DNA of 64,000 nt from an uncultured Armatimonadia bacterium (lineage in GTDB: Bacteria > Armatimonadota > Zipacnadia > CAVVLO01), in the NCBI GenBank assembly GCA_963749155.1, contig CAVVLO010000001.1:96001-160000 (forward strand), read 5' to 3'. The position numbers and the translations under genes are program-made. Below the pieces are notes generated by a model, which saw nothing but the letters and a program-made list of their open reading frames with translations, was not told the DNA's origin and did no database searches. The stretch's first letter is position 1. Each line of letters opens with the position of its first letter. Of the stretch, positions 50,686 to 56,255 are shown piece after piece.

Positions 50686-52669
50686 ATGGAGTGGAGCTTC
50701 GGGCGAGAACAACTCGGGCGGCTTGAGTGCGGCGCCAGCCGCGAATGGCTGCTGACCAATGGCCTGGGCGGCTGGGCGAGTGGTACCTTCAGCGGGCTGA
50801 ATACTCGGCGGTACCACGGGTTGCTCGTGGCTGCAGCCAGTCCCCCAAGCGGGCGCTGGTTGCTGGTCAACAAGCTCGAAGAAGAATTGCTGCTGCGCGG
50901 CAAGACTTTCCAACTCGGAGTCAACACCTATCGTGGCGCGCTGGAACCCTCAGGTCATCTGCTGCTTCACGAAGCCAGTTTCGACGGTACGATGCGGTTT
51001 GTCTACGCCTGCGAGGATGTGCTGCTCGAGAAGCAAATTGTAATGGTGCAGGGCGCCAACCTGACGCTGGTGCGCTACCGGCAGCTTTCAGGCCCACCCC
51101 TCCAGTTGAAGGCGCGCCTCTGGGCTAACAGCCGAGATCTCCACGGCGATACTCACGCGAGCCCGCACTTTTCCACCAAAGTCGAAGAGCGCGAGGGAGG
51201 CTGGCTGGCCCATCAGGCTTTTCCGGAGGCGCCAACTTTGCTGGCAAAGGCGACGGCTGGCGAGTTCGGCGGAGAAGCTTACTGGATTTATAACGTCCAC
51301 TATCAGGAAGAAGCCGCTCGCGGCCTGCAGGCGGAAGAGGATGTCTTCTCGCCGGGCTGTTTCGAGTGGTCAAGTGCGGCCGGGACTTCGGTAATCGTGG
51401 CGCTGGCGGCGGATGAAGCGCCTGAAGGCGACCTGGACGCTCTGTTCGAGCAGGCTGTGGTGGACGCCCGACGCCCCTGGCGACAGCAGAAAGACAGGTT
51501 TCGAGACTCCACTTGCCCAGGCTCTGCTCGGGGCCAGCGAGTCCTTTAGCGTGAGGGACGAGGACAAAGGCCGCTATCTGCTGGCCGGCTATCACTGGTT
51601 TGGGCCTTGGGGCAGAGACACTTTTATTGCGCTGCCTGGCCTTACGCTCGTGACAGGGCGCTTCGAAGAGGCCAAAGCGCTGCTTTCGACCCTGGCTCGC
51701 CACGTTACAGAAGGCCTCGTGCCCAATCTGGTGGACGAGGGGGGCGGGGCGGCTTACAACACGGTAGACGCCTCACTGTGGTATATCTGGGCGGGTCAGA
51801 AGTATCTCGATTACACGGGCGATGTGGAGTTCGCCAGAACAGAACTCTGGCCTGTCCTTCAGGACATCCTGCACAGTTACGAGACAGGCACGCGTTACGG
51901 CATCCACGCCGATTCCGACGGGCTGATAACCGCAGGGGATGAGGGTACCCAGCTTACCTGGATGGACGCCAAGTACGGCGACTGGGTAGTGACTCCGCGC
52001 GCGGGCAAGGCGGTCGAGATAAATGCGCTTTGGTATAACGCCCTGCGCTTTGGAGAGAAGCTGGCCGCCCTGGCTGGCGAGTCGGGCGACCACTATGGCA
52101 GGCTGGCTTCGCGCGTCTTCGAGAGCTTCAATCAGAGCTTCTGGTACCCCGAAGGCGGGTATCTCCTGGACGTAATCGGCCCCGCTGGAGTTGATGCTTC
52201 CTTCCGGCCTAACCAGATCATCGCCGCGAGCCTGCCTTTCTCCGTCCTGGACAAGGCCAGAAGCCGACTGATGGTGGAGAAGGCCTGGCAGCGACTTTGG
52301 ACAGGCCACGGATTGCGCTCCTTGGCTCCCGATGATCCGCATTATATCGGTCATTATGGGGGAGATACGGCCTCCAGAGATGGCGCTTACCACCGGGGGA
52401 CGGCCTGGGGATGGCTGGCGGGGCCGTTCTTCACCGCCTTCAGGCGCGCTTTTGGCGAGGAGCCCTGGGCGCGTGAGACACTTGCAGAGCTGTTTGCCGG
52501 TTTTGAGGGGCACCTTTGGGAAGCCGGGGTCGGGTTCGTGTCTGAGATCTTCGATGGAGACGCGCCGCACCTCTCGCGTGGCTGCATCGCCCAGGCTTGG
52601 AGCGTTGCTGAGTTGCTGCGCGCCTGGTCAGAAGACTATCTGGGCAACCGGCCCGACTTCTGGGCCTAG
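50686..52669 (+). CDS. Amylo-alpha-1,6-glucosidase / glycogen debranching enzyme (frameshift at about 51480)
   Basis: REWLLTNGLGG, RRYHGLL, AGYHWF..WGRD, TWMDA, EINALWYN, RPNQ, SEIFDG and AQAWSVAE. Confidence 0.92.
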
Positions 52670-54234
52670 CCAGCGTTTCCGTCCAGTGGCAGGCGGTTCA
52701 GCCGGTCCAGGCAGAGCTGCTTGCAGTCACCGCAGAAACGCACTCCGCGCCTGCATTCGTCAGCGATTTGGGCATGCTCCTCTGCGCTGTCAGCCAGGAA
52801 GAAGGCCAGCAGGCTGGAGATGCTGCATAGCCGCGTGTCGGGATTTCCGCCCAACGTGGCGTGTTCTTCCTTCGTGCGACCTCCCCCTGTCAGCGCGCGT
52901 TTCAGCTTGGTCGCGACTGCCTGGGAAGATTCATCCAGATAAATTGAAGTCGTTTCGCTCTCGGGATTCATAACATCCACATAGCTGCCGGTCGCCTGGT
53001 CAATATAAGGATGCAGGCCTGCAACTGCGCGTATGTAAAGAGCAACAGGCCTGGGCCAACCGACATCAGCGGCGTGGCGGCGGGCCATCCGGACATAGAT
53101 GTCCTGATCCAGAGTCCCTATGAAAGCGGTCCGGACGCCGTCTGTCGAGGCGGGCAGCAGCAACTCCGCAGTGCGCAGCAGCGGCCGGTAGACCTCGGCG
53201 ACCTGGCTCTGTAACCTGAGTCCAAAAGCGGCGTTGAGGTTGGCGAGCGACAAGTGCGCCCCGGCTTCAAGGGCAAGCGCGGCAAGCTGAGGATCATCGC
53301 GCTGGGAGATGATTTCAGCGGTTTCCAGATTTACCCCAAGCCTTGGTAAACGCGCCACAAACTCACTTTGGGCATGGGCGCGGGCTGCTTCGAGAGATAC
53401 CTCGCCCGAGGCGGAAGCCTCCAGATCGCGCACGAAGAGGGTCAATTTTGCGCCAAGCGACTGCAGCCAGCCAAGGAGCGATGCCACCGCGGCATGTTGA
53501 AGCGTCATCCGGCCCTGCCCCGGCACTCCTGAGACTACCGTTACTGGTTTGCCCTCGCGCAAGGCATCGGCGACCAGAGCGAAGTCGCGCATCCCGACGA
53601 TAAGGCCGCGGGTTATGTATTCGTGTGGGGCCTCGAAGAGCTGCAGCAAACGCTCATAGTTGTGGGAGAACTCGGGCAGCGAGGGCGTTATGTGGAACTC
53701 GCGCGAAAGGTTCTCCTCCCGCGCCAGCGAGGCGTAATCGGCCCGGCTGGAGATAGGGTCAATGTTGAATTCACCTGTAGCGGGGGTCGCTCTGTCAGTC
53801 TGCATCAACTGCTTGCTCTGGGCCAGTTCGGCGGCGAACCGGGTGGCGAGATTTTCTTGCGCCTCGCGCGCCTTGGCAAGCATAAACAGCACCATATCCT
53901 CGGCTACATCGGGGCTAAGACCGACCTCGGAAGCCTGCTTGCGCGCGGTCTCGCGCAGGCCTTCCTCAACGAAAGGCCGATGGATACGCTCCGAGTGCAG
54001 CAGTTTTGCCAGAGCAACGCGCTCGGCGCTGCTTATGCGGGCCGAAAACTCCTCCAGTGCGGCCTTGGTGTGTTTCCGGATGGTCGCGCGCTCCCTGGTC
54101 AGGAACTGGCGGTAATCTTCCGCATCCGGTTTGTACCGGGTGATTACCTGCGCCGGGTCGGTCCCCGCAAGCAGCTCGGTTACCGCTTCGGTCAGATTCA
54201 GAGGGGCGCCAGTCGCTTCGTTGCTCGTACTCAT
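52666..54234 (-). CDS. Fusion of AroQ chorismate-mutase domain and degenerate archaeal-type tryptophanyl-tRNA-synthetase-like domain
   Basis: Residues 45-127 align without gaps to AroQ (R49, R66, K77, E90, Q126). Residues 155-522 follow archaeal TrpRS (IDP..DY..L..E, RGLIVGMRDF, DLEA, DQD, KRALTGG..T.EEH..LGG.P, CGDCK) with HIGH->TLQH and KMSSS->VMNPE. Confidence 0.8.
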   Translation of the reverse strand: MSTSNEATGAPLNLTEAVTELLAGTDPAQVITRYKPDAEDYRQFLTRERATIRKHTKAALEEFSARISSAERVALAKLLHSERIHRPFVEEGLRETARKQASEVGLSPDVAEDMVLFMLAKAREAQENLATRFAAELAQSKQLMQTDRATPATGEFNIDPISSRADYASLAREENLSREFHITPSLPEFSHNYERLLQLFEAPHEYITRGLIVGMRDFALVADALREGKPVTVVSGVPGQGRMTLQHAAVASLLGWLQSLGAKLTLFVRDLEASASGEVSLEAARAHAQSEFVARLPRLGVNLETAEIISQRDDPQLAALALEAGAHLSLANLNAAFGLRLQSQVAEVYRPLLRTAELLLPASTDGVRTAFIGTLDQDIYVRMARRHAADVGWPRPVALYIRAVAGLHPYIDQATGSYVDVMNPESETTSIYLDESSQAVATKLKRALTGGGRTKEEHATLGGNPDTRLCSISSLLAFFLADSAEEHAQIADECRRGVRFCGDCKQLCLDRLNRLPLDGNAG

Positions 54235-55473
54235 ACCACCTTTATACGCGCAAAATTGCCTTTTCCGACCTTCAGCACGGCGCCGTCTGTGACTTCGAGC
54301 AGCGCGCTGGCATCGAGAAGCTTCTCGCCATCCAGTGAGACAGCCCCCTGCTTCACCAAACGCTTGATGTCACCGCGCGAGGCGATGCCTGGGAAGCCGG
54401 CCTTCTCGACCAAATCCAGTGGCGAGAGCTTGCCGGCAGCAATCTTCAGCTCCACCAGGTCGTCCGGCGCTTCGGCCTGTTTGCCGGCACTTGGATGCAG
54501 CAACTCGAAGTTCTCCGCCGCCTTCTCGGCCGCCGCCTCGTCCCAGAAACGCTTGACCAGCTCGGTCGCCGAGCCGGCGTTTCATCAGGCGCGGATGGAA
54601 AGTATGGTCGCTCACCGGGTTGGCCGCATACTCGGACAGGCCGGCTTCCAGCTCGTCGAGTTGCTCCAGGGTCACGCCCGTCAGCAACTTGAAGTAGAGC
54701 AGCATTACTTCATCCGGCAGGCTCATAGCCTTGCCGTACATCCGGTCGGGCTCTTCTGTAATGCCGATATAATTGCCAAGCGATTTGGACATCTTCTGCG
54801 TGCCGTCGGTGCCTGGCAGGATGGGCAATGTAAGCACGCATTGCTGAGGCTGGCCATACGCCTGCTGGATGGTGCGGCCCATCAGCATATTGAAAGTCTG
54901 GTCGGTGCCTCCAAGCTCGACATCGGCCTTCAGCGCCACCGAGTCATAGCCCTGCAGCAGGCAATACATAAACTCGTGCAGGCGGATTGGCTCTTCGGCC
55001 TTCCAGCGCTTCTCGAAGGAGTCGCGTTCGAGCATCCGGGCCACGGTCACCTGAGCGGCCAGGCGCATCATATCGGCCAGGTTCATCCCCGCCAGCCAGT
55101 CACCGTTATAGACAACCTTTGTCTTTTCTTTGTCCAGAAGCCGGAAGACCTGCTCTTCATAGGTGCGCGCATAGGCCAGCACATCCTCTGGAGACAGCTG
55201 CGGCCTGGTGTTGTCGCGCCCCGAAGGGTCGCCTATCTGCGCGGTAAAGGTGCCGACCAGAAAGTAAATTTCGTGCCCAATATCTTGAAGTTGTCGCAGC
55301 TTCTCTATCGGCACGGTGTGACCGAAATGGAGGTCTGAGGTGGTCGGATCTACCCCCAGCTTTATGCGCAGGGGCCTGCCTTCTTTGAGCTTGAGAGCCA
55401 GGGCTTCTTCCGAAGGCAGCAAATCGGCCGCGCCTCTGAGGAAGACCTTCATTTGCTTGTCGATGTCCATCAT
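54231..55473 (-). CDS. tyrS: Tyrosyl-tRNA synthetase (+1 frameshift at about 54569)
   Basis: KLGVDPT, HFGH, GDPSGR, LQGYD, GGTDQ and KMSKSLGN; corrected frame RRLATELVKRFW continues into the S4 domain ending LKVGKGNFARIKVV. Confidence 0.96.
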
Positions 55474-55549
55474 CTGCTGCTAGCTTCCTTTTTTAATAGG
55501 ACGTAGCTTCAGCAAAGTCCTATCATCAGTGCCAGTTGGCGGCGAAGGT

Positions 55550-55579
55550 ATTCTACCAGAGGCAGTCTTTGCCTCATAA
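55550..55579 (-). promoter_or_regulatory. Putative extended -10 promoter of tyrS
   Basis: TTATGA-N18-TAGAAT with TG extension on the minus strand; leader of about 70 nt. Confidence 0.45.
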
Positions 55580-55610
55580 GAAAACGGGAGCGGCGTTTGC
55601 CGCTCCCGTC
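55578..55610 (-). terminator. Intrinsic terminator after lemA
   Basis: ACGGGAGCGGC-AAAC-GCCGCTCCCGT followed by TTTCTT. Confidence 0.75.
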
Positions 55611-55632
55611 TCATCTCTTGCCTGGCAGGAGT

Positions 55633-56192
55633 TTAGAACTGCACGCGGACGGGTTCGCGCGCCTCCGGTTCTTCTATCCGATAATAAGGCAAAGGTCGGG
55701 CGCTCATAAAGCTGGCTATCACACTGTTGGGGAAGACCTGTATCAGCGTGTTGAAGGTCATCACAGCCTCGTTGTAGACCTCGCGCGAGGTAGCGATTTC
55801 CTGCTCTATCTGCTGGAGTTGCTGCTGCAAATCCATAAAGTTCTGGTCTGCTTTGAGGTTGGGATACGCCTCGGCAACCGCAAAAAGGCTTCTCAAAGCG
55901 CCGGTCAGAATATTATCAGCCTGGGCGCGTTCTTCCACAGTGCCGGCATTGTCCATTGCGGCGCGCGCCTGAGTGACCCCCTCGAGGGTCTCTCGCTCAT
56001 GCGCGGCGTAGCCTTTCACCGTCTCGACCAGATTGGGGATGAGGTCATAACGCACGGCGAAGCTGCACATCGATCTGTGCCCAGGACTGTTCTGCCCGAT
56101 TGCGCTGGGCCACTAATCCGGTTGTAGATCCCTATCAGCGTGACGATTATCAGTGCGACGAGAACGAGTAATCCAATGGCTAGAGCAAACAT
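55633..56192 (-). CDS. lemA: LemA family protein (two frameshifts at about 56055 and 56118)
   Basis: TM plus [31 protein letters not shown] and FPNSVIA. Confidence 0.93.
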
Positions 56193-56255
56193 CAGCCTCA
56201 CTCTCCTCAGGTCGGTCTGGATAAATCCTATCACGCTGCCAGATTGGGGTCAAAA

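Follow-up and report, generated by a model that had tools for sequence, protein, structure and literature searches.

A chorismate mutase domain fused to a tryptophanyl-tRNA synthetase-like protein without its ATP-site motifs in an uncultured Armatimonadia bacterium

Chorismate mutase decides how chorismate is split between tryptophan and phenylalanine/tyrosine, and its known controls are small-molecule allostery, as in yeast and plants, or complexes with 3-deoxy-D-arabino-heptulosonate 7-phosphate (DAHP) synthase. In a different setting, copies of aminoacyl-tRNA synthetases take part in regulation: HisZ, a paralogue of histidyl-tRNA synthetase (HisRS), is the regulatory subunit of the ATP-phosphoribosyltransferase HisG, and the HisRS-like domain of GCN2 is thought to read uncharged tRNA. 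Here, we describe an open reading frame (ORF) that joins an AroQ-type chorismate mutase domain to a degenerate copy of tryptophanyl-tRNA synthetase (TrpRS). It lies in a stretch of 64,000 nucleotides (the window; positions 96,001 to 160,000 of contig CAVVLO010000001.1) from an uncultured Armatimonadia bacterium, and it runs as one uninterrupted frame of 522 codons from position 52666 to 54234 of the window on the minus strand (protein P0001). The reading that we favor, and to which we give slightly better than an even chance, is that of a working housekeeping mutase seated on a TrpRS-like dimer that does not charge tRNA and that probably acts as a sensor of tRNA-Trp and/or Trp.

The described systems that come closest each share part of this design. 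Like the fusion as we read it, HisZ is a synthetase copy without aminoacylation that is physically tied to an amino acid biosynthetic enzyme. However, HisZ belongs to class II, is a separate polypeptide, senses the end product of its own pathway, and has no tRNA anticodon domain, whereas the fusion is a class I TrpRS copy, covalently joined to an enzyme of the competing Phe/Tyr branch, and its anticodon domain is its best-kept part. GCN2 likewise has a dead synthetase domain fused to an effector domain, but it is eukaryotic, its effector is a kinase, and many tRNAs are involved, whereas the effector of the fusion would be a metabolic enzyme and the determinants that appear to be kept are specific for the Trp anticodon. 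Yeast Aro7, a chorismate mutase activated by Trp and inhibited by Tyr, is the regulatory precedent for control of a branch-point mutase by Trp status, although its Trp site is situated within its own all-helical fold, with no synthetase-like domain or tRNA.

In the chorismate mutase-DAHP synthase complex of Mycobacterium tuberculosis (2W1A) and in the DAH7PS-CM proteins of Geobacillus and Bacillus (5J6F and 5GMU), AroQ activity or ligand binding is coupled to a second body. All three appear among the fold matches of the modeled AroQ domain of the fusion. There, AroQ is paired with the enzyme that opens the shikimate pathway, whereas the partner in the fusion would be a tRNA-binding module. The mutase of the Escherichia coli P-protein (1ECM), part of a bifunctional chorismate mutase-prephenate dehydratase (CM-PDT), shares with the fusion the three-helix fold, a gapless alignment, and the residues R11, R28, K39, E52, and Q88, and an intertwined dimer is predicted for the fusion by the model. 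It differs in that the fusion has other residues in place of R51, D48, and S84, a pseudo-synthetase instead of prephenate dehydratase (PDT) as the partner, and a Pfam score below the cut-off. Finally, the Fe-S TrpRS of Thermotoga maritima (2G36) and Aeropyrum pernix (3A04/3A05) are described in PMC4027196 as having a [4Fe-4S] cysteine motif in the anticodon-binding domain. The fusion has such a cysteine motif in the same domain and matches 3a04 best, but HIGH and KMSKS are intact in those tRNA-charging enzymes, whereas the fusion has lost both motifs and carries the AroQ domain. No account of this fusion was found in the searched literature, which did not extend to subscription-only papers, and this agrees with a first-pass annotation of the window, made from the sequence alone, whose author knew of no description of it.

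Domain architecture of the fusion protein

The AroQ domain comprises amino acids (aa) 38 to 139 (53818 to 54123; this and all other features of the fusion are on the minus strand) and is recognized by sequence profile, fold, and conservation. The Pfam family CM_2 (PF01817) matches aa 49 to 126, which covers profile positions 2 to 79 of 80, with an E value of 9.9e-5. The same family matches 9 of 10 family representatives at an E value of ≤0.1, with 3 of the 10 above the gathering cut-off (P0005, P0012, and P0015 at 27.2, 34.9, and 36.6 bits, respectively). A profile of the N-terminal domain made from 21 family sequences and searched against PDB sequences retrieved 5ts9 (4.9e-6), 6al9 (1.1e-4), 6cnz (4e-4), and 1ecm (1.9e-3), and further matches are 5vht, 2gbb, and 2gtv. 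Of the eight best matches, all but one are chorismate mutases, the exception being a cytochrome repeat. The profile alignment to 1ecm contains no gaps and pairs R11 with R49, R28 with R66, K39 with K77, E52 with E90, and Q88 with Q126, which reproduces exactly the correspondence drawn by eye in the first-pass annotation, including the valine in place of R51. Two sets of family sequences show no variation at the equivalents of R11, R28, E52, and Q88 (55/55 and 24/24), and the equivalent of K39 is present in 55/55 and 21/24, the smaller set being made of diverse members that are 22 to 37% identical to the window protein, besides the 94% identical protein P0002. As aligned, the domain keeps five of the eight active-site residues of the E. 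coli enzyme.

The modeled AroQ domain has a predicted local distance difference test (pLDDT) score of 90.4 and shows the long, short, long succession of helices (aa 38 to 79, 87 to 104, and 108 to 144). Its best Foldseek matches are AroQ mutases and include 1ecm_B, with a TMt of 0.90 and a root mean square deviation (RMSD) of 1.3 Å, and 3rmi, with a TMt of 0.83, and nearly all of its structural neighbors are AroQ mutases or isochorismate-pyruvate lyases. The Foldseek E values are weak (0.037 and above), as expected for a helical domain of 100 residues. The fusion is thus a borderline AroQ member by sequence and a clear one by structure. The mutase helices are preceded by an N-terminal cap (aa 11 to 35; 54130 to 54204), delimited by family conservation and the model, which contains two short helices (aa 14 to 22 and 27 to 33). 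Among 21 to 24 diverse members, V18 of this cap does not vary, and conservation reaches at least 90% at G24 and P27.

A low-confidence linker (aa 140 to 169; 53728 to 53817), with a pLDDT of 53 to 72 and no predicted secondary structure, leads to a TrpRS-like body of the archaeal/eukaryotic type (aa 170 to 515; 52690 to 53727), composed of a Rossmann fold and an anticodon-binding domain. This assignment draws on Pfam, NCBIfam, PDB, and Foldseek. The Pfam family tRNA-synt_1b matches aa 228 to 513 with 22.6 bits (cut-off, 21.1), and among PDB sequences, the A. pernix Fe-S TrpRS 3a04 matches best (E value, 2.7e-25). Foldseek with the full-length model (pLDDT, 87.9; predicted template modeling score, 0.85) retrieved 3a04 with a TMt of 0.79 and an RMSD of 2.8 Å over 347 columns, followed by human, yeast, and parasite TrpRS. 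The best score among TrpRS equivalogs comes from the archaeal-type model PRK12285.1-2 (NF008925), at 176.7 bits against a cut-off of 451, and TIGR00233 gives 90.2 bits against a cut-off of 176.75. The first-pass annotation had an archaeal-type TrpRS begin at aa 155; the type holds, but the start does not, since similarity sets in at about aa 139 to 193.

For comparison with canonical enzymes, 35 archaeal-type TrpRS from a representative search were used. These contain 44 columns that are at least 85% conserved, 29 of which are kept in the fusion and 15 lost, with the lost ones concentrated at HIGH, near GxDQ, and at KMSSS. The HIGH site is degenerate and reads T244-L-Q-H247 (53494 to 53505), and the KMSKS site reads V421-M-N-P-E425 (52960 to 52974). 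The lost positions, named by the canonical residue, include H244 and G246 in HIGH; P372, G374, and P379 around GxDQ; and K421, S423, and S425 in KMSSS. The column of human Q284, which holds R354 in the fusion, is also among the 15. In the canonical relatives, the HIGH columns hold H in 35/35 and G in 34/35, and the KMSKS columns hold K, M, and S in 35/35 each, of which the fusion retains M422 alone. The DLE and DQD motifs are present (D270-L-E272 and D376-Q-D378), with E272 equivalent to human E199, and the kept pocket residues are D270, E272, Q377, and D378. In the anticodon domain, almost all of the conserved positions are kept, namely, K443, G450, G451, G462, G463, P465, G497, G502, and K505. 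The TLQH, VMNPE, DLE, and DQD motifs are all as the first-pass annotation had read them, and the insertion that it placed before the KMSKS site is real, although it is not a single one, several small insertions being present in that region.

Its proposal that the synthetase half is dead is well borne out by these comparisons, in which both ATP-site signatures are lost and every TrpRS equivalog score is far under its cut-off. Judged by motifs and equivalog scores, the fusion stands outside the TrpRS family in the functional sense, and it very probably does not aminoacylate tRNA. The separate, intact trpS that the first-pass annotation had expected elsewhere in the genome is found about 89 kb away; it is of the canonical bacterial type (TIGR00233, 294.9 bits against 176.75), with HLGN and KMSKS visible. 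The fusion could instead be a second TrpRS that still works in an unorthodox way, such as an antibiotic-resistant or condition-specific copy with an incidental mutase domain. This would fit the overall fold, which is intact in the model. It would also fit the family members P0010 and P0009, which keep HLGH with KMSSG or RMSSS and GxDQ and whose ancestor was probably an active TrpRS. With each of the eight positions named above at HIGH, around GxDQ, and at KMSSS replaced, with the equivalog score so far below 451, and with a canonical trpS present, however, we hold this to be highly improbable.

Because neighboring genes have apparent frameshifts, the sequence of the fusion was checked independently. 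Contigs from four public runs were aligned to positions 52600 to 55500, and the only indels listed in them are at 54571, 55213, and 55219, every one in the adjacent tyrS gene. The 522-aa ORF that the first-pass annotation had reported is therefore confirmed as intact. Run X2 gives depth in 30 of 30 bins across the checked stretch. A contig from an RNA library (X19) over 53465 to 53615 includes the TLQH codons and differs by one substitution, without any indel, and a second X19 contig at 54216 to 54366 has 19 letters on the fusion side; such libraries can hold DNA. Among the best-supported strain differences, beyond which 68 more exist for the whole stretch, 20 of the 26 inside the fusion ORF are synonymous, and two of the other six are double hits in one codon that are jointly synonymous. 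The ORF is under purifying selection. The related protein P0002 (a separate cluster of five member sequences on two contigs) is also 522 aa long and has TLQH and VMKPE. Because P0002 agrees and the contigs of the four runs have no indels in the ORF, the motif states are not assembly artifacts.

The apparent frameshifts in three neighbors (tyrS, a debranching-enzyme gene, and lemA) could suggest that the fusion itself is a decaying relic or an assembly artifact without function. Against this stand the 522 open codons, the equal length of P0002, the absence of ORF indels in the four runs, the mostly synonymous strain differences, and a family of 54 loci, which together make such an explanation scarcely credible. 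The GC content is uniform across 44 to 62 kb of the window (about 0.56 to 0.64), and over this range there is no compositional sign of recent transfer.

The fusion as the only detectable mutase in its genome

The genome that carries the window (G000; 4.17 Mb in seven contigs, 100% complete and 5.87% contaminated by markers) has 11 scored CM_2 candidates, and the fusion ORF is the only match at an E value of ≤0.001. An AroH-type mutase (CM_1) was not found in this genome, which does have a prephenate dehydratase (192 bits) and a TrpE-like chorismate-binding enzyme (321 bits). The pattern recurs in five genomes with a longer form of the fusion, described below. In all five, the sole CM_2 match is inside the fusion (open frames of 753 to 784 aa), none has CM_1, and each has a monofunctional PDT in an open frame of 280 to 286 aa. 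Among 40 fusion-free genomes of the same class as G000, 38 have exactly one strong CM_2 match (72 to 98 bits), located in a frame of about 350 to 570 aa, and none has CM_1. In the two loci with a complete ORF, this frame reads as a CM-PDT P-protein, and in L063 it adjoins accD.

The pheA gene of G000 (C2:1211097-1211621; locus L005, 1213 to 2232, minus strand) also adjoins accD and is syntenic with that of the relative in L063. The first 66 aa of its product align to the mutase domain of the relatives with a gap of 13 residues, and the catalytic R, R, K, RE, and Q are all gone. This 66-aa stub matches no Pfam family at an E value of ≤0.01, and the protein matches the bifunctional model over the dehydratase part alone. 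The host's own mutase domain is thus eroded in the sole lineage of the class that has the fusion, which is the pattern expected if the fusion took over the activity. Since the fusion is the only detectable mutase and PDT is present, a catalytic mutase is much likelier than a pure chorismate sensor, and from sequence evidence of this kind we consider it likely that the AroQ domain is a working enzyme.

The logic could also be reversed, with the AroQ domain mainly as a sensor of chorismate or prephenate, like the CM-like regulatory domain of Bacillus-type DAHP synthases, and the TrpRS-like body holding, presenting, or withholding tRNA-Trp, so that precursor status would be passed to translation. 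The CM-like regulatory domains 5gmu and 5go2 and the DAH7PS-CM protein 5j6f, all among the structural matches, are in keeping with such a role, as are the replacement of R51 by valine and the position of trpS directly downstream of the fusion in 52 of the 54 long-form loci. These genomes would then be mutase-free and yet keep prephenate dehydratase, however, and the R/R/K/E/Q set would be fully kept in a domain that no longer catalyzes, while the loss of the mutase from pheA in G000 argues that the function moved to the fusion. We regard this explanation as distinctly unlikely.

Anticodon-binding region, dimer model, and possible tRNA sensing

In the TrpRS-like body, the columns that are invariant among the 24 diverse members are E173, E179, G261, T449, G450, G451, G462, G463, C470, C494, C501, C504, and K505. 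The four cysteines form the motif C470-x23-C494-x6-C501-x2-C504 in the anticodon-binding domain (52723 to 52827), directly followed by K505 (52720 to 52722), and these five residues are invariant in 55/55 and 24/24 sequences. The anticodon-binding/Fe-S region is, by this alignment, the best-conserved part of the dead TrpRS, and the cysteines presumably hold a [4Fe-4S] cluster, as in the Fe-S enzymes. According to PMC4027196, the cluster was proposed in a theoretical study to recognize the first anticodon cytosine, and human TrpRS contacts the CCA anticodon through S378, G380, T427/G428, and K431. Mapped on the fusion, the human contacts given there correspond to T449 (S378), G451 (G380), C501/G502 (T427/G428), and K505 (K431). 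Of these, T449, G451, C501, and K505 are invariant in the family, and G502 is kept in 54/55 sequences and variable in more diverse members. The conservation of the anticodon contacts, although indirect, is the strongest hint that the dead enzyme may still read tRNA-Trp.

Two copies of residues 25 to 522 were folded together, along with three controls. The dimer scored 0.60, against 0.00 for the best control. Of proteins solved as pairs of one chain, 20 of 30 attain this mark, compared with 1 of 23 among those solved as single chains. Agreement between the runs is at least 91% of the contacts, and the pLDDT of the partner is at least 79. The model has two confident interface patches. The AroQ helices (aa 41 to 124) make up one, which has H1-H1 pairing and includes R49, the equivalent of R11', and the Rossmann body (aa 271 to 353) makes up the other, in the region where TrpRS dimers meet. 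As modeled, one 2-fold arrangement can satisfy the AroQ and TrpRS interfaces together.

A dimer model that fits both interfaces would also suit a scaffold and nothing else, in which an active housekeeping mutase has the dead TrpRS as a stable dimer base, possibly with an Fe-S cluster for stability, and no ligand regulation takes place. The destruction of the ATP site and the loss of the residues that contact the indole of Trp in the human enzyme point the same way. Such a role would not require the conservation of T449, G451, K505, G502 (54/55), and the four cysteines at about 22 to 37% identity, and it leaves the repeated linkage to trpS or tyrS unexplained, so that we rate it as rather unlikely.

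The working mutase with a sensing synthetase body, which we favor, would operate as follows. The protein would be a homodimer in which the N-terminal AroQ domains pair as a canonical intertwined chorismate mutase, and this AroQ dimer would most likely supply the chorismate-to-prephenate activity of the cell. The C-terminal two-thirds would be an Fe-S-motif TrpRS that is unable to activate tryptophan but retains the dimer interface, a partial pocket, and the anticodon determinants. The dead synthetase would serve as both scaffold and sensor, with tRNA-Trp bound by its anticodon and with Trp or the acceptor end perhaps bound in the pocket with E272, Q377, and the gained R354. Binding of tRNA-Trp and/or Trp would alter the geometry or activity of the attached mutase dimer. 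When charged tRNA-Trp or Trp is scarce, chorismate would be spared for anthranilate synthase, and the flux to Trp versus Phe/Tyr would track Trp/tRNA-Trp status. We infer the gating by Trp or tRNA-Trp from the conservation of the anticodon contacts and the pocket and from analogy with HisZ, GCN2, and yeast Aro7. Ligand-dependent regulation of some kind comes close to an even prospect without exceeding it. Its most specific form, in which a tRNA would directly gate a bacterial metabolic enzyme, is a speculative and fairly unlikely one. The pseudo-TrpRS would then bind tRNA-Trp by the anticodon, and perhaps Trp or the CCA end in the remodeled pocket with R354, and uncharged tRNA-Trp would allosterically throttle the mutase, so that the state of translation would set the chorismate branch point without a transcription factor or riboswitch.

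Several observations weigh against the favored reading. The CM_2 score of the fusion is 22.9 bits (26.6 in the genome search), below the gathering cut-off of 27 bits, so that, of the two Pfam assignments proposed in the first-pass annotation, tRNA-synt_1b clears its cut-off, whereas CM_2 matches over its full length and stays below its own. The equivalents of E. coli R51, D48, and S84 are V89, R86, and A122, all three being changes that had already been noted in the first-pass annotation. At the position of R51, only 5 of 24 family members have R, and the other 19 have V or I. With these three residues replaced, mutase activity could be weak or partner-dependent. V89 in place of R51 may leave the mutase site suboptimal on its own, a situation similar to that of the M. 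tuberculosis mutase, which depends on DAHP synthase and whose complex (2w1a) is among the fold matches of the AroQ model. In the pocket, the equivalent of human Q284 is R354, and the human contacts with the indole of Trp, Y159 and Q194, correspond to V234 and F267. AroQ and TrpRS dimers have both been solved, and the result of the dimer model may therefore reflect likeness to known structures.

The genomic pattern has its own weaknesses. Sole-mutase status was established by detection at the Pfam level, and an unrecognized mutase may be present. Prephenate/arogenate dehydrogenase (TyrA) gave no PF02153 match in G000, with 14 of 14 reference genomes positive as a control, and tblastn of G000 with the TyrA of two relatives gave a best E value of 0.51. 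Phenylalanine hydroxylase (PF00351) was not found in G000 either, while TyrA is present in four long-form genomes and one class relative. The aromatic pathway of G000 may be in partial decay, in which case a mutase would be needed less. With no TyrA in G000, the mutase there may serve phenylalanine synthesis only.

The fusion family, its gene context, and its significance

A scan of one genome per species revealed 54 fusion loci, labeled as Dehalococcoidia, SAR202, or Chloroflexota, that are about 35% identical to the window protein over aa 13 to 512. The window protein is not unique but a divergent, short representative of a family that has at least 54 genomic loci. The proteins of these loci are long forms of 737 to 803 aa (counted from the first start codon and leaving aside one locus cut by a contig end) with 60 to 100% mutual identity. 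They keep HLGH, do not have KMSKS, and show GGD in place of DQD. In all of them (L006 to L059), the AroQ domain is preceded by a further conserved domain of about 220 aa at the N terminus. This domain matches no Pfam family, and tblastn did not find it in G000 (best E value, 0.10). An exhaustive representative search added the long forms P0004, P0005, P0007, and P0015 and short forms of 524 to 547 aa (P0009, P0010, P0012, P0022, and P0023). Several of the short forms retain HLGH together with RMSSS, KMSSG, or KMISS and GxDQ.

A tree of the TrpRS-like region of 20 fusion proteins and 35 canonical enzymes (quick method, LG+G4, 332 columns) places all 20 fusions on one side of a branch, opposite the 35 canonical TrpRS (Shimodaira-Hasegawa approximate likelihood ratio test, 99). 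The motif-bearing short forms are closest to the canonical TrpRS, and the window protein is a long branch among the degenerate forms. Most simply, the tree can be explained by a single event that joined AroQ to an active TrpRS, the ATP site of which later decayed. No state more degenerate than that of the window protein, which has neither the N-terminal domain nor HIGH nor KMSKS, was seen.

Searches of a sample of the 40 nearest genomes of the same class and of 60 genomes sampled from the order to which one long-form carrier belongs did not find the fusion. When 400 genomes were sampled from the phylum of G000, the family profile matched only the C-terminal region of ordinary TrpRS; such matches, to enzymes of about 330 aa at an E value of ≤1e-10, were observed in 72 of the 400. 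The canonical TrpRS of G000 (C1:238829-239665; locus L002, 1351 to 2349, minus strand) itself carries a C-terminal C...C-x6-C-x2-C motif. A metagenome scan with P0001 gave 97 pattern matches and no confirmed fusion, and a scan with P0010 gave one truncated locus (L078), the upstream genes of which (arabinofuranosidase-like, M24 peptidase, and beta-lactamase-family protein) are uninformative on function. The nearest ESM Atlas clusters are ordinary archaeal TrpRS, with a score of 0.89, under the 0.9 level. The representative search also showed other TrpRS fusions, namely, three clusters of B3_4-TrpRS (P0026, P0055, and P0077), cytochrome b5 plus indoleamine 2,3-dioxygenase with TrpRS (P0114), and tetratricopeptide (TPR) repeats with TrpRS (P0102).

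In the window, tyrS lies directly upstream of the fusion (54231 to 55473, minus strand; TIGR00234, 293.7 bits), and the ATG of the fusion overlaps its stop codon at 54231 to 54234; translation of the two genes is coupled. In 52 of the 54 loci of the long-form clade, a trpS of the bacterial type lies downstream on the same strand within 0 to 635 nucleotides (nt); of the remaining two, one has trpS at 895 nt and the other has no trpS in the locus. The 54 loci are kin, and the 52 trpS linkages are not independent events. The family is therefore linked twice to synthetase genes for aromatic amino acids, tyrS in one case and trpS in the other.

No T-box or leader RNA was detected in the window upstream of tyrS or the fusion, a 159-nt leader upstream of tyrS giving a sub-threshold match to the Rfam family Termite-leu (55484 to 55614, minus strand; 20.9 bits against 51; E value, 0.76). 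Leader RNAs were likewise not found in the loci of 10 relatives, where two tRNA genes were the sole matches. A promoter and terminator scan was uninformative, and the window has no tRNA genes.

Three genes close to the fusion have apparent frameshifts. The tyrS gene is split by a one-base frameshift near 54571 into ORFs of 367 and 90 aa, and one X1 contig without the base at 54571 gives a continuous TyrRS of 413 aa with an S4 tail; the frameshift is an assembly error, probably an indel, or a strain variant and not a feature of the locus. A glycogen-debranching gene (50686 to 52669, plus strand) is split into GDE_N (50686 to 51549) and GDE_C (51413 to 52669), which overlap in different frames, probably through an assembly frameshift. 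The lemA ORF (55633 to 56234, minus strand) begins at profile position 11, and the missing transmembrane N terminus is in a 72-aa ORF in another frame (56016 to 56234). This third likely frameshift within about 6 kb suggests an indel-prone assembly.

The eroded mutase domain of the P-protein in the host is a genomic signature of functional replacement, and the family forms a graded natural series of synthetase death, from intact HIGH and KMSKS through HIGH only to neither, as in the window protein. If our reading is right, the fusion would be a further example, beside HisZ and GCN2, of synthetase copies reused as sensors, and it would represent a new regulatory design in which a branch-point mutase is joined to a disabled TrpRS that reads tRNA-Trp.

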